A stretch of DNA of 64,000 bases, from the NCBI GenBank assembly GCA_020637215.1, contig JACJWI010000009.1, forward strand, positions 20,576 through 84,575, read 5' to 3'. Shown here piece after piece: positions 1 to 19,256 of the stretch. The notes under the pieces are model-generated. The model did no database searches and was not told where the DNA came from. It worked only from the letters and a program-made list of their open reading frames with translations. The stretch comes from Microthrixaceae bacterium. Lineage in GTDB: Bacteria; Actinomycetota; Acidimicrobiia; Acidimicrobiales; Microtrichaceae. The number at the start of each line of letters is the position of its first letter. Within the stretch, counting starts at the first letter, position 1. The position numbers and the translations under genes are program-made.

Positions 1-205
1 CCCCGATGATCCGCCGCGAGATCGACCCGATGCGGTCGATGGTCGGGTCCGCTGCTGGCGCGGCGGTACCGATCGGTGTTCCTGGGCGGGCCAGGTCGGC
101 CAGGACGAGCCCGATCGGGGTGGGCCGAGGGGCGAGCGCACGCCATGTGATCAGCGCGCCGGCGCCGATTCCCGCGCCGAGGAGGCACATGACGACGACC
201 TTCAC
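1..205 (-). CDS. TadC-like type II secretion F-family membrane protein (partial, runs off the left edge)
   Basis: GTG start overlaps the tadB stop (GTGA). Translates MKVVVMCLLGAGIGAGALITWRALAPRP, a hydrophobic N-terminus in the tadC position. Confidence 0.7.
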   Translation of the reverse strand, partial: MKVVVMCLLGAGIGAGALITWRALAPRPTPIGLVLADLARPGTPIGTAAPAADPTIDRIGSISRRIIG

Positions 206-1065
206 GGCTCGACTCCTACCGCTGTCGGGCTGGCGGCTCGAGCCGTGAAGCGCTCGGGTAGGTCGATGCGGGCCATGCGGGTGAGGAGCCATCCGCCGGT
301 GGCGAAGATGGCGCCGACGACGGCCAGAACGAGTTGACCAACGGGGCTGTCGTAGACGGCGAGGTAGTCCCGGTTGACCAGAGCGAGGAACACCACTGCG
401 GCGACGACGACACCGACGATCACCTTGGTGGCAGTTCGCACTCTCGTGCGACCGACCTCGACGCGGATGCGCATCCTCGCCTCGCCGCGGGTGGCATCGG
501 CGAGCCGGGACAGGAGGCTGGACAGGTCGCTGGCTTCCATCCGGGCGGCGATGACGAGCGCGGCGACGACCAGGTCGCCGGAGGGGTGGATGAGGTCGTT
601 GCCGAACGCGACGAGCGCATCGGGCAGCGGTTGGTGTTCGAGGCGACGGACGAGGGTGCGGACCTCGGGGGCGATCGGTGCAGGGGCGACGTTCGCGGTG
701 GCGATGATGGCTTCTTCGAGCCCGGACGCGGCGACGATCGAGTCGCGGATCATCTCGGTCCACGAGGCAATGGCCTCGGTGCGAGCGATCTCGCGGTCGC
801 GGTGGCTCTTTCCTCCGAGCACACCCGGCAGGGCCGCGACGGTGAGCGCGCCGAGAACCCCGCCGACGAACCAGCCGGTGACCGCCCACACGACGATGAA
901 CGCAGCGACGCTGGACGCGATGCGGGCCGTTCCGGGGCCGCCGACTCTGCGTTGAGCGCCGGCTCCCACCCCTTCGAGGATCGGCCTGCCGGTGAGCCCG
1001 GCCACGACGAGCAGGAGCCCCAGTGCTGCGCCGGCCGCGAGTGCGGCGATGACCAGGGCGCTCAT
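202..1065 (-). CDS. tadB: TadB-like type II secretion F-family protein
   Basis: N-terminal TM helix, GLEEAI motif, C-terminal TMs with YLAVYDSPVGQ; ATG overlaps the cpaF stop. Confidence 0.85.
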   Translation of the reverse strand: MSALVIAALAAGAALGLLLVVAGLTGRPILEGVGAGAQRRVGGPGTARIASSVAAFIVVWAVTGWFVGGVLGALTVAALPGVLGGKSHRDREIARTEAIASWTEMIRDSIVAASGLEEAIIATANVAPAPIAPEVRTLVRRLEHQPLPDALVAFGNDLIHPSGDLVVAALVIAARMEASDLSSLLSRLADATRGEARMRIRVEVGRTRVRTATKVIVGVVVAAVVFLALVNRDYLAVYDSPVGQLVLAVVGAIFATGGWLLTRMARIDLPERFTARAASPTAVGVEP

Positions 1066-2438
1066 CGCCACCACCCGTCGGCCAGCGCGTGCGCTTCGAC
1101 GTCGAAGCCGTAGCGCTCGAGCTTGTCGGTCAGCTCGCGGGTAGGGGGTGCGGCCGGGGCCGCTGTGCCGGTTTCGTCGGGGCGCCAGAGCTCGTTGGAG
1201 ACGATGTGTGGGCCTTCGAGGGTGCCGGTGACCTGGCGGACGCTGGTGATGCGCCGCTCGCCCTCGACCCAGCCGAGGTGCACGATGAGGTCGACGGCAT
1301 TGGCGACGAGCAGGTTCGTCACCTCGGGCACCAGCCGCTCGGGGGTCATGGCCGCGTACATGGCGAGCCGCCCGAAGACGCCCTTGGACGAGTCGGCGTG
1401 GATCGAGCACATCGACCCGTCGTTGCCTTGGGACATGGCGAGCAGCATCGGGAGCACCTCGGCGCCGCGAACCTCACCGACGATGACGCGGTGTGGGTCC
1501 ATGCGCAGCGCGGAGCGGACGAGGTCGGCGAGGGTGATCGCGCCGACGCCTTCGGTGTTGGCCTCGCGGGCTTCGAGGGTCTCGTGGTCGGGATGGAGGT
1601 CCTCGAAGCGTTCCAGGCCGATCTCGAGTGAGTCCTCGACGGTGATGAGCCGCTCGTCGGGTTCGATCTCGTTGATGAGGCAGCGAAGCATCGTGGTCTT
1701 GCCGGTGCCGGTGCCGCCGGCAACGATCACGTTTGCTCGGGCCCGCACCGCGGCCGACAGGAACCTGGAGAGCAGGTCGTTGCACACACCGCGTGCGACG
1801 AGCTGGTCGACACGGTGGATGTCGAAGTCGTGGCGGCGGATCGTCACCGTGGGTCGACCTGACACGGCCATGAGGGCGTGGAGCCGGTCGCCGTTGGGGA
1901 GTTGGAGGTTGAGCTCGGGTTGGGCGTGGTCCCAGCGGCGTTCGCTTCGACCAAGCCTCCGGGCCGCGGTGGCGATCAGCTCGACCAGCTCGTCGTCGGA
2001 CGCTGCGACCGACGGGCCACGCACCTTGGTGCCGTCGCGCATGGTGAGCCACACCCGGTTCGCCCCCGAAATGTGGATGTCGCGGATCGACGGGTCGTCG
2101 AGCAGCGGTTGGAGGCGGGCGAGGCCGTGGAGTCGATCGAGCACCGCGGTCATCACCGCGTCCTCGGTGGCTTCGTCGAGCGGTTGGCGACCTGTGGAGT
2201 AGGCGTCGGTTGCCAGTCGGCGCAGTTCGTCGGCCAACAACTTGCGGGCCAGGGCTCGTTCATCGGATACCGATAGTCGGCCTCGGCCCGCGTCCTCATG
2301 GGCGCTGTGGGCGGCGGTGAGCGACTCGCCGACGATGCGATGCAATCGGCCGACGAGCTCCGCGGCCTCGCCCTCGAGCGGTGCCGAGGAGGCGGTCGAG
2401 CTTCCCTGCTGTGGAGAGATCGCGACCGTGGTGCTCAT
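1062..2438 (-). CDS. cpaF: CpaF/TadA pilus assembly ATPase
   Basis: Walker A GGTGTGKTT, ITVEDSLE, LRMDPHRVIVGEVRG, GNDGSMCSIHA. Confidence 0.95.
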   Translation of the reverse strand: MSTTVAISPQQGSSTASSAPLEGEAAELVGRLHRIVGESLTAAHSAHEDAGRGRLSVSDERALARKLLADELRRLATDAYSTGRQPLDEATEDAVMTAVLDRLHGLARLQPLLDDPSIRDIHISGANRVWLTMRDGTKVRGPSVAASDDELVELIATAARRLGRSERRWDHAQPELNLQLPNGDRLHALMAVSGRPTVTIRRHDFDIHRVDQLVARGVCNDLLSRFLSAAVRARANVIVAGGTGTGKTTMLRCLINEIEPDERLITVEDSLEIGLERFEDLHPDHETLEAREANTEGVGAITLADLVRSALRMDPHRVIVGEVRGAEVLPMLLAMSQGNDGSMCSIHADSSKGVFGRLAMYAAMTPERLVPEVTNLLVANAVDLIVHLGWVEGERRITSVRQVTGTLEGPHIVSNELWRPDETGTAAPAAPPTRELTDKLERYGFDVEAHALADGWWR

Positions 2439-3157
2439 CGGATCGTCACCGCCTCGGACACCGGTGCGGCGGGCTTGTCGAGGATGTCGACGAGCCCGGC
2501 GACGGCTCGCGAGAGCCGGGAGCGGGCGAGGGACCGGGAAGTGGTTCCACCGTCGCGGAGGTGAGCGGCAGTCGTGGGGTCGTCGGGCAAGTGGGCCAGG
2601 ACCGGCGCGCCGAGCGAGTCACCGATCTCGGTGGGCCGGTAGGTGCCGTCACCGACGAGCACCACGCCGACCTGCACGCCGCGGTGGCCGAGGTTGGTGG
2701 CGTTCAGCGTTGCGACCGCGTGGGATGCGGCGACGAGCTCCTCGGCATTGGGTCGGGCCAGCACCAACACCACCTCGGCAACGTCGAGGATCCGGGGGCG
2801 GCGCCAGATCCGGCCGACGTCGATGACGACCGTCCCGTCGGAGCGGCCGAGAACCCCCACGATCCGCTCCCCCGCTGTCCGCCACAACGACTCCGCAGTT
2901 TCCGCGGCGTCCGGGCCGACCAGCACCGGGATGCCGCCGGCGTTCTGGGCGTGGTCGAGCCAACCGCCGGGCTCGTGTGGGTTCGCCGCAGCCAGCGTGA
3001 CCAGGCCCGGTTCGCGTCCGAGCCCGTAGCGGATCGCGACCACCCCACCGGACAGGTCCGCCTCCACCATCACGGCGTCGAGGTGCGACGCGACGAGCAG
3101 AGCGGTGGTGGTGACCCCGGGTGCGCCCCGGGCCGAGCACAACGCCACGGCCCTCAT
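2435..3157 (-). CDS. CpaE/ParA-MinD-like protein with degenerate P-loop
   Basis: SARGAPGVTTTA (Walker A lacking Lys), VEADLSGG, VVIDVGR; lies between the SAF gene and cpaF. Confidence 0.75.
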   Translation of the reverse strand: MRAVALCSARGAPGVTTTALLVASHLDAVMVEADLSGGVVAIRYGLGREPGLVTLAAANPHEPGGWLDHAQNAGGIPVLVGPDAAETAESLWRTAGERIVGVLGRSDGTVVIDVGRIWRRPRILDVAEVVLVLARPNAEELVAASHAVATLNATNLGHRGVQVGVVLVGDGTYRPTEIGDSLGAPVLAHLPDDPTTAAHLRDGGTTSRSLARSRLSRAVAGLVDILDKPAAPVSEAVTIR

Positions 3158-18815: not shown

Positions 18816-19086
18816 GGGGGAAGGTACTTCGCCCTGCGTCACGACCCACCGCCCGGCGTTCAGCATTCGCCGCTCTTGGCGACCCACGGTCCGGTGTGGC
18901 GGATGAGCTCAACCCGAGGGAACGGTCCACCACCCCTTCCGCCCTGACCGTTCCCCTGAGAACCCGAAGATCACCCCAACTGCCGTGAGCGAGCCTCGCG
19001 AGCGGTCCGAACCCCAAGCCACGCAAGGACCGCCGTCATCCCGGCCCGGACCGTCCTGTCACCGACCGTCGTGGGCTGTACCAGGC

Positions 19087-19170
19087 GATCCGGTAGAAAA
19101 CCCGGTAGAAGATCGGGGAACGGGCAGCAGAAAGGCCTCCCCGATTCCTCGGAAAGGGCCTTTGACCTGC
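19087..19170. promoter_or_regulatory. att-proximal region: 12-bp-period direct repeat, hairpin and TGACCTGC motif downstream of the tRNA
   Basis: ccggtagaa at 19090 and 19102; aaaggcc...ggccttt inverted repeat at about 19131-19163; tgacctgc at 19163-19170. Confidence 0.45.
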
Positions 19171-19179
19171 TGTTTCAGA

Positions 19180-19256
19180 TGGTGGCGGGGGCAGGATTTG
19201 AACCTGCGACCTTCGGGTTATGAGCCCGACGAGCTACCGAACTGCTCCACCCCGCG
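19180..19256 (-). tRNA. tRNA-fMet (CAT), CCA encoded
   Basis: CGCGGGGTGGAGCAGTTCGGTAGCTCGTCGGGCTCATAACCCGAAGGTCGCAGGTTCAAATCCTGCCCCCGCCACCA. Unpaired C1 and three G-C pairs in the anticodon stem mark an initiator tRNA. Confidence 0.98.

Follow-up and report, generated by a model that had tools for sequence, protein, structure and literature searches.

A Tad/Flp pilus operon inside the transfer region of a tRNA-fMet-integrated conjugative element from a Microthrixaceae bacterium

Introduction

The integrative conjugative elements (ICEs) of Actinobacteria that carry a type IV secretion system (T4SS) and a MOBF relaxase were defined as a group by Ghinet et al. (2011; PMC3218068), whose survey makes no mention of tad or pilus genes. 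The closest description of Tad genes beside conjugation genes concerns the large Tad/Flp plasmids of Cutibacterium acnes, p15.1.R1, pIMPLE-HL096PA1, and p11-79, and its authors left open in 2017 whether tad and conjugation are functionally linked (PMC5696575). Here we describe an element of the Microthrixaceae bacterium assembly GCA_020637215.1, found in a stretch of 64,000 nucleotides (“the window”) that corresponds to positions 20576–84575 of contig JACJWI010000009.1, here called C20; coordinates without a contig name are those of the window. Positions 1–19179 are the tRNA-proximal ~19 kb of an ICE that almost certainly has its own monoderm-type T4SS, and a complete Tad/Flp (type IVc) operon sits between its T4SS block and its relaxase operon.

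Conjugation in monoderm bacteria has been characterized as pilus-free, without pilins and dependent on surface adhesins, with no reports on actinobacterial T4SS structure or composition (PMC4027160). In IncI plasmids, a type IV pilus encoded beside the T4SS stabilizes mating and selects recipients (PMC9045228). A 2026 Rhodococcus genome paper names tadA, tadE, and secretion protein F “conjugal transfer genes” on annotation only, and a search of full-text literature, which did not cover subscription-only papers, turned up no functional work on what Tad pili do during conjugation in Actinobacteria.

Results

Type IV secretion genes to the left of the window

The genome comprises 3.39 Mb in 20 contigs, with 71% G+C. 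Because such a high G+C content leaves many spurious frames open, genes were picked by third-position G+C (GC3) and then checked against hidden Markov model (HMM) libraries (Pfam, NCBIfam); GC3 is 0.84 for genes of the element vs. 0.92 for neighboring chromosomal genes. Comparisons were made with a set of 201 related genomes, in which G- and L-numbers denote the genomes and loci compared.

The initial annotation, made from the window alone, had reported a MobF relaxase without a VirB4 or coupling-protein gene, and had offered two explanations: either the mating-pair genes lie further left, or the element uses the Tad machine or hitchhikes on another system. The contig continues 20.6 kb left of the window, and there, at C20:1719–13382, 7–19 kb from the first base of the window, we found the genes expected under the first explanation. 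Together with the relaxase they are as follows.

Beyond the coupling-protein gene: large methyltransferase, cut by the end of contig C20.
C20:1719–3596: VirD4/TraG-type coupling protein (T4CP; T4SS-DNA_transf 1.6e-27, TraG-D_C 1.2e-17, TrwB_AAD_bind).
Left of the window, in the T4SS block: Toprim primase.
C20:6896–8254: VirB4-type ATPase, 452 amino acids (aa; P-loop_TraG, AAA_10).
C20:8200–9891: SCO6880-family membrane protein (212 bits, cutoff 60).
C20:9680–11164: VirB6/TrbL-like polytopic protein (TrbL 1.4e-5).
C20:11095–11820: VirB8-like bitopic protein, 241 aa (transmembrane segment plus NTF2 domain).
Left of the window, in the T4SS block next to the hydrolase: membrane protein, 120 aa.
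C20:12225–13382: M23 plus glucosaminidase cell-wall hydrolase.
9047–12328, forward strand: MobF relaxase and SF1B helicase fusion, 1093 aa (TrwC 7.3e-60, AAA_30 2.6e-52).

All reading frames of the T4SS block are open. The only VirB4 match in the genome at E ≤ 1e-40 (C20:6899–8254) lies left of the window, so the reported lack of VirB4 within it was accurate. The C-terminus of the SCO6880-family protein matches the N-terminal part of the VirB4 model CD1110 (NF045971) and the next gene matches the part that follows; because the two match consecutive parts of one model, the SCO6880-family protein and the 452-aa ATPase together make up a split VirB4. Scores against full-length VirB4 models fall under their cutoffs, as expected of a split gene. 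The predicted C-terminal NTF2 fold of the VirB8-like protein resembles IcmL-like, CagV/VirB8, and DotI structures with a TM-score of ~0.6 (0.57–0.65, normalized to the target). The relaxase scores 189.5 bits against the NCBIfam MobF model NF041492 (cutoff 100), and its named relatives are metagenome-assembled genomes (MAGs) of Microthrixaceae, Iamiaceae, and other Acidimicrobiales, which places the host among the Acidimicrobiia.

With a T4SS and a coupling protein on the same contig, the MobF relaxase needs neither the Tad machine nor a helper element. The single element is thus a normal T4SS ICE, as the initial annotation had said it would be if a complete conventional T4SS lay just to the left, and the reading of a relaxase without a T4SS is wrong.

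Several further observations concern these genes. The TrwC match spans relaxase residues 47–509 against a 286-position profile, which corresponds to an insert of ~180 aa, and a weak HTH_17 match (residues 272–297) falls inside it. Between the coupling-protein and primase genes, C20:3783–5190 is a variable two-gene insert, absent from all relatives compared, whose first protein matches the PADLOC candidate defense family PDC-M09A (4.4e-26). The ATPase of the split VirB4 appears in public records as “ATP-binding protein” and sometimes even as “type VI secretion protein.” Many plasmids with a split VirB4 are classed as non-mobilizable by MOB-suite.

The Tad/Flp operon

The tightly coupled tad operon of the initial annotation is present with all the genes listed there, and stop/start overlaps of 4 bp occur at four junctions (TadC/TadB, TadB/TadA, TadA/CpaE-like, and CpaE-like/SAF). 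The gene order is regulator, lipoprotein, secreted protein, SAF, CpaE-like, TadA, TadB, TadC, Flp, TadE, TadE, TadG, LysM-BTAD. The genes within the window are listed here.

1–205, reverse strand: TadC platform protein, N-terminal ~68 codons (T2SSF 3.2e-10 for the full frame).
202–1065, reverse strand: TadB platform protein, 287 aa (T2SSF 8.5e-6).
1062–2438, reverse strand: TadA/CpaF secretion ATPase, 458 aa (T2SSE 2.7e-35).
2435–3157, reverse strand: CpaE/TadZ-like protein of ParA/MinD fold.
3154–3888, reverse strand: SAF-domain membrane protein, RcpC/CpaB-like (SAF 2.7e-5).
3890–4759, reverse strand: secreted beta-rich protein with conserved cysteines (signal peptide MRTRVLTALLLAGASVLLAATPAGAG).
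4741–5391, reverse strand: lipoprotein, 216 aa, with a Ser/Thr-rich linker (lipobox LALAG↓C).
5628–6326, reverse strand: possible regulator (“sigma-like”), first gene of the tad operon.

The TadC gene starts with GTG at 205 and extends 709 bp past the left edge of the window, to C20:19866. Next come genes for a 67-aa Flp-type prepilin, for three pseudopilins (two TadE and one TadG-like), and for LysM-BTAD, a membrane protein of 1037 aa that bears LysM repeats and ends in a BTAD domain. Flp, the three pseudopilins, and LysM-BTAD all lie outside the window, where the initial annotation could not see them. Two variable genes separate the LysM-BTAD gene from the cell-wall hydrolase. The prepilin reads ...DERG↓MTTTEVAV and had no HMM match, so that the call comes from sequence features and synteny, while the pseudopilins have domain matches (TadE 8.2e-11, Tad 6.7e-7); all four pilins and pseudopilins carry ERG (an ERG↓xxxxE/Q-type site) followed by a hydrophobic stretch. 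No prepilin peptidase (TadV/CpaA) was found on the element. A scan of the whole genome gave a single Peptidase_A24 match, on the chromosome (C2:45522–45854), so pilin maturation would depend on the host. Tad loci without a prepilin peptidase of their own are common in Actinobacteria, and its absence does not exclude function.

TadB starts at 1065, overlapping the TadA stop, and is 79–81% identical in G050, G198, G015, and G019. TadA scores 216 bits against TIGR03819 (“TadA family conjugal transfer-associated ATPase”) and does not reach its cutoff of 373; it is a relative rather than a member of that family. The host chromosome has three further TadA-like genes, to which the TadA of the element is only 32–36% identical and from which it is separated in the TadA tree. 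The SAF gene is next to the CpaE-like gene in all relatives, and the lipoprotein, with GGAGG before its ATG at 5391, is 53–66% identical in close relatives.

Two of the labels first given to these genes have less support than had been assumed. For “CpaE” the fold is supported, as a profile of 10 homologues matches structures of a ParA-family ATPase (3ea0, 4.9e-6) and MinD (1hyq, 1.4e-5) over its full length, with no Pfam or NCBIfam match; its Walker A motif is degenerate (GAPGVTT) and lacks the lysine, so ATPase activity is doubtful. The “sigma-like” label is the weakest: the gene at 5628–6326 has only a weak match to sigma-70 region 4 (E 0.009), and Pfam gives nothing even at E ≤ 1. It is 43–47% conserved in close relatives and divergent from the 181-aa gene/relaxase operon.

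Conservation of the Tad module and its linkage to the T4SS

Within the genus, the tad locus is absent from six of the seven other genomes, and the one carrier has it at 97% identity together with the relaxase, coupling protein, and VirB4 (96–99%). The initial annotation had reasoned that syntenic tad genes in strains lacking the integrase would be chromosomal; same-genus genomes free of the element lack this tad locus. Copies in genomes of other genera and families are 70–88% identical and share one gene order throughout: tRNA-fMet, integrase, relaxase, 181-aa gene, regulator, lipoprotein, secreted protein, SAF, CpaE-like; then TadA, TadB, TadC, Flp, TadE, TadE, TadG, LysM-BTAD, hydrolase, small membrane gene; then VirB8-like, VirB6-like, SCO6880, VirB4, primase, T4CP, methyltransferase. 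The patchy distribution within the genus beside close copies in other families, and the lower GC3 of the genes, speak for mobility of the element. Variation is found at four spots, namely T4CP/primase (the PDC-M09A pair), hydrolase/LysM-BTAD (two genes), tad/relaxase (ABC-F), and excisionase/integrase (455-aa and MarR proteins). The order and place of the tad module are kept in at least 13 relatives of other genera or families, and in six more distant relatives that were checked the tad and relaxase operons are divergent neighbors ~200 bp apart.

The content, order, and place of the module are kept in related ICEs and plasmids down to ~30–50% protein identity. Distant relatives with Tad beside a T4SS (VirB4 39–54% and TadA 35–57% identical) were found in nine genomes: G176 and G089 (two copies each), G129, G044, G143, G132, G178, G130, and G109. 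The arrangement is also present on pNOCA01, a conjugative MOBF plasmid from Nocardioides sp. JS614, and on a 69-kb Streptomyces linear plasmid (NZ_CP108445.1). Two further genomes have it as well, one of them the complete sequence of the cultured Iamia majanohamensis (CP116942.1), whose ICE is located at about 0.89–0.93 Mb. The Streptomyces plasmid pairs the module with a “replication-relaxation family” protein, another relaxase type, and the tad module is therefore not specific to MobF relaxases. Across the 201 genomes, 18 of 69 VirB4 homologues have a strong TadA match within ~40 kb on the same contig; with two diverged modules the total is 20. As most of the assemblies are in pieces, this figure is a minimum. 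The Tad operon thus accompanies the T4SS genes in two classes of Actinobacteria, on ICEs and plasmids, and its order is fixed.

The family of the secreted protein (3890–4759) occurs in all 13 T4SS-linked Tad modules examined and in none of four T4SS-less Tad loci. It comprises at least 362 protein clusters, none with a Pfam domain, and its C-terminal domain is found on 195 actinobacterial plasmids. The AlphaFold2 model of the protein has a core with pLDDT mostly >80, and a comparison with folds in the PDB gave no significant match (best E 0.028, TM-score <0.2).

Taken together, these comparisons indicate that the tad module very probably belongs to the conserved backbone of this element family.

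Two relatives deserve separate mention. The closest plasmid relative, NZ_CP050949.1 (L057) of Iamia sp. SCSIO 61187 (VirB4 72% identical), is a decayed backbone copy with a broken VirB4 and is typed non-mobilizable; its methyltransferase is intact at 1760 aa and shows how much is missing at the end of contig C20. L048 (MAG Acidimicrobiia bacterium FR_1, JAOSJK010000012.1) shares 86% identity with the window in its relaxase but 99 and 93% in the adjacent secreted and CpaE-like proteins, a pattern of identities that looks like module exchange between related ICEs.

Integration site and extent of the element

The tRNA-proximal end contains the following features.

12409–12636, forward strand: excisionase-like HTH_17 protein, 75 aa (HTH_17 8.6e-10, 39.2 bits, cutoff 27).
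14659–15354, reverse strand: 231-aa protein, translationally coupled to the integrase.
15351–17240, reverse strand: tyrosine integrase, 629 aa as the longest open reading frame (Phage_integrase 1.3e-23, Phage_int_SAM_3 3.5e-8).
17241–19179: end segment between the integrase and attR, G+C 0.63–0.64, with short or broken frames.
19180–19224: att core (attR), identical to the 3' 45 bases of tRNA-fMet.
19180–19256, reverse strand: tRNA-fMet (tRNA-Met(CAT), ARAGORN).

The tRNA has the hallmarks of an initiator, with positions 1:72 unpaired and three G-C pairs (GGG/CCC) in the anticodon stem as read from the sequence. The tRNA-fMet linkage, integrase, excisionase, and MobF relaxase-helicase reported in the initial annotation are all confirmed, and the copy of the tRNA 3' end that it suggested seeking exists several times over: counting the window, there are five identical copies of the 45-bp core (the others at C4:22390–22434, C4:6851–6895, C9:150–196, and C10:1508–1552). 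Each adjoins its own tyrosine integrase, and several integrative elements are therefore piled in tandem at tRNA-fMet. Most genomes of the genus likewise have several att copies, with the tRNA-fMet/hydrolase synteny kept and without this ICE; the tRNA-fMet site is therefore an integration hotspot.

In G050 a homologous ICE lies between two att copies 45.3 kb apart, and the 141 bp just inside one att copy of our genome (C4:22435–22575) are 88% identical to the distal end of that ICE. From these two findings, the element extends from C4:22435 to window position 19179 across at least one assembly gap, for at least 50 kb, with metabolic cargo on its C4 arm. Attempts to join contigs across the C4/C20 gap by end overlaps found none, and contig C6, considered as a bridge because G015 has similar genes, was rejected for its chromosomal GC3 and ordinary metabolic content.

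Integrases 61–66% identical stand beside tRNA-Met in G050, G198, and G015, and the integrase also adjoins tRNA-Met in G176. The coupled 231-aa protein gave no family match in Pfam and NCBIfam scans, and a homologue was found only in G015 (53%). The same excisionase-like gene follows the relaxase in L086 and L088 too. The ~2 kb between the integrase and attR gave a weak match to a DO-GTPase2 (Double-GTPase) fragment, no PADLOC match, and no frame with coding-like GC3; they are probably decayed cargo.

Outside the window, a second element occupies C4:6898–22382 between two att copies. It encodes an 861-aa fusion of an AEP-TOTE primase with a ResIII/DEAD helicase (TOTE conflict-system domain, 1.2e-78), a PIN protein, an HTH_17 protein, a sulfate permease, and an integrase, and it contains an integrase-like stretch 90% identical to contig C9.

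Other genes beside the relaxase

The remaining genes of the element in the window flank the relaxase and excisionase-like genes.

6466–8106, reverse strand: ABC-F ATPase with two ABC domains and no transmembrane segment (ABC_tran 1e-46).
8362–8907, forward strand: conserved 181-aa protein upstream of the relaxase.
12647–14622, forward strand: variable cargo, a 455-aa protein followed by a MarR-type winged helix-turn-helix protein (14065–14622; MarR_2 3.2e-10).

The 181-aa protein gave no family match in Pfam and NCBIfam scans. It is syntenic and 49–54% identical in relatives, with a length of 181 aa in Iamia as well, and its position makes it a candidate relaxosome accessory protein. The ABC-F gene, which was missing from the list of the initial annotation, scores best against ribosomal-protection models of the antibiotic-producer type, below their cutoffs (NF000171, 360.6 bits, cutoff 800; NF000355, 325.6 bits, cutoff 380). 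By architecture we assign it to ABC-F; a resistance role is not supported by the cutoffs. It is missing at the tad/relaxase junction in G050, G198, G015, G019, L086, and L088, and is cargo that has been inserted between these two operons; for L047 and L048, which are the closest relatives, the spacing from the secreted-protein gene to the relaxase suggests that the ABC-F gene may be there too. The 455-aa and MarR proteins are absent from all six relatives compared. No Pfam match was obtained for the 455-aa protein even at E ≤ 1, and a “nitrilase” label was rejected on this ground.

Discussion

How the Tad pilus may serve the element

The reading that explains the whole locus best, and the one we consider probable, is an ICE with its own T4SS that uses a Tad pilus as a contact device. 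It draws on the conservation of the module, on its position, and on the divergent control region of ~200 bp that it shares with the relaxase operon in relatives. Following established knowledge of MOBF systems, the relaxase would nick the origin of transfer; the coupling protein would then receive the nucleoprotein, and a channel of VirB4, VirB6-like, and VirB8-like proteins, together with the hydrolase, would export the DNA. The Tad pilus would act beside the T4SS and not replace it: a retractable fiber could capture and pull in recipients, or stabilize aggregates of mating cells. Passage of the pilus through the thick wall may be eased by the LysM protein and the hydrolase, and the single chromosomal prepilin peptidase of the host would cut the pilins of the element. 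The “Tad-assisted” transfer proposed in the initial annotation is plausible and gains comparative support from a conserved, syntenic tad module in related ICEs and plasmids. The chances that the module itself acts in mating appear evenly balanced.

Several findings weigh against this contact-device reading. In this assembly the left part of the element falls on more than one contig. Loci that share the Tad core, LysM-BTAD among it (TadA 46–52% identical), are present in G084, G147, G155, and G156, where searches found no T4SS, relaxase, or coupling protein; the Tad module therefore also works without conjugation genes. Conversely, tad genes are missing from seven related T4SS clusters that have long flanks (G026, G145, G175, G106, G167, G110, G165), and the pilus is therefore not obligatory for this type of T4SS. 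Pilus module and T4SS are thus separable in both directions. In the poorly resolved TadA tree, T4SS-less and linked loci interleave (three label changes); a clean split between linked and unlinked loci was not obtained, and deep branches are unresolved. On the Iamia plasmid NZ_CP050949.1 a deletion flanked by two IS3 copies has removed the tad module, and of the LysM protein only the BTAD end remains.

The same near-identical Tad loci without any T4SS, the Tad-less clusters of the same T4SS type, and the loss from the Iamia plasmid also speak for taking the operon as adaptive cargo, an adhesion or biofilm “colonization island” for the host with no part in DNA transfer, and Tad loci are indeed known as horizontally spread adhesion islands (Planet et al.). 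We nevertheless regard this as unlikely. Real cargo occupies a few variable spots of the element and differs between relatives, whereas tad is fixed from Acidimicrobiia ICEs to Nocardioides and Streptomyces plasmids; the dedicated secreted-protein family is found only in the T4SS-linked version; the host already has three other TadA-like loci; and on the Iamia plasmid that lost the module, which is typed non-mobilizable, VirB4 is broken too. The divergence of the tad module is also similar to that of the T4SS proteins. In favor of tad as backbone, the identities of VirB4 and TadA to their query sequences covary with rho 0.90 (n = 19), a value carried by the split between close and distant relatives, as distant pairs alone give a non-significant rho of 0.49 (n = 11), which counts against the contact-device reading as well.

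The three other roles that could be given to the Tad machine fare worse. That it replaces the T4SS and coupling protein as DNA conduit, or that the element hitchhikes on another T4SS, agreed with the absence of both VirB4 and a coupling protein from the 64-kb window; with a full T4SS gene set and coupling protein on the same contig, all frames open and syntenic with tad and relaxase in every close relative, this second explanation of the initial annotation is contradicted by gene content and has become scarcely credible. It is very unlikely that the operon encodes a pilus for DNA uptake (competence) by the ICE host or recipient in the style of Micrococcus luteus, whose transformation requires Tad pili in the work of Angelov et al. 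(2015) as cited in PMC5696575, since no ComEA, ComEC, or DprA-like genes turned up in scans of the genes of the element, an uptake pilus brings the element no obvious transmission benefit, and the tight linkage is to export genes. TadA might also serve mainly as the VirB11-like third ATPase that monoderm T4SSs otherwise lack, with the pilin genes secondary; against the VirB11 and TrbB models it reaches 152 bits, and NCBI calls the related clade TIGR03819 “conjugal transfer-associated ATPase.” We hold this to be highly improbable, as the whole pilus machine is co-conserved (two platform proteins, Flp, three pseudopilins, SAF) and the TIGR03819 score stays under its cutoff.

Significance

Beyond the pilus as contact device for this one ICE, we tentatively propose, at slightly less than an even chance, that Tad/Flp together with the secreted protein and LysM-BTAD forms a mating pilus dedicated to conjugative elements of Actinomycetota that make up one large, old clade, with ICEs in Acidimicrobiia and plasmids in Nocardioides, Streptomyces, and other hosts. 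In that case no earlier T4SS conjugation system of a monoderm would have had a pilus of its own, and T4SS-less chromosomal Tad loci nested among linked ones would be domesticated leftovers of such elements. At the least, a Tad operon inside the transfer region may be an unrecognized mating pilus, and the question left by the C. acnes plasmids in 2017 is now testable, with Iamia majanohamensis (CP116942.1) as a named cultured carrier. There is also a consequence for annotation: parts of these systems are labeled “hypothetical,” “ATP/GTP-binding protein,” or “type VI secretion protein,” as on pNOCA01 and the Streptomyces plasmids, and several such plasmids are MOB-typed non-mobilizable.

Comparison with known systems

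In Sulfolobus, Ups pili bring cells together and the VirB4-related Ced machine moves DNA. That system resembles ours in pairing a pilus for contact with a VirB4-related DNA machine, but it is archaeal and chromosomal, and it imports DNA instead of exporting it. IncI R64 and PAPI-1 encode type IVb “thin” pili beside their T4SS. These pili (IncI R64, TP114; PAPI-1/ICEclc-type islands) share with the present case a pilus on a conjugative element, a functional analogy only: they have PilS/PilV pilins, a secretin, and diderm hosts, with homology only in the ATPase and platform superfamilies. No type IVb pilus parts turned up on the element in general Pfam scans, which were not aimed at them.

Actinobacterial plasmids come closer. 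On the C. acnes plasmids, the tad locus adjoins VirB4-like, TcpC/VirB8-like, and FtsK/coupling-type genes, as far as their description goes; unlike our element they are linear, belong to a skin bacterium, and are not integrated at a tRNA, and no relaxase was reported there. On pNOCA01 and Streptomyces linear plasmids (e.g., NZ_CP108445.1), the same set of secreted protein, SAF, CpaE-like, TadA, TadB/C, Flp, TadE/G, and LysM genes lies beside SCO6880/VirB4-type genes and the hydrolase, although these are plasmids, the proteins are only 26–42% identical, and the Streptomyces one has another relaxase type.

With the T4SS-type ICEs of Ghinet et al. (2011), finally, the element shares every sequence feature by which that group was defined: a tyrosine integrase, insertion at a tRNA 3' end with a direct repeat, a VirD4-type coupling protein, a VirB4-like ATPase, and a TrwC/MOBF relaxase. 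It differs from them in the hosts of its family, which are Acidimicrobiia, and in the Tad module of 13 genes that is conserved within the transfer region.

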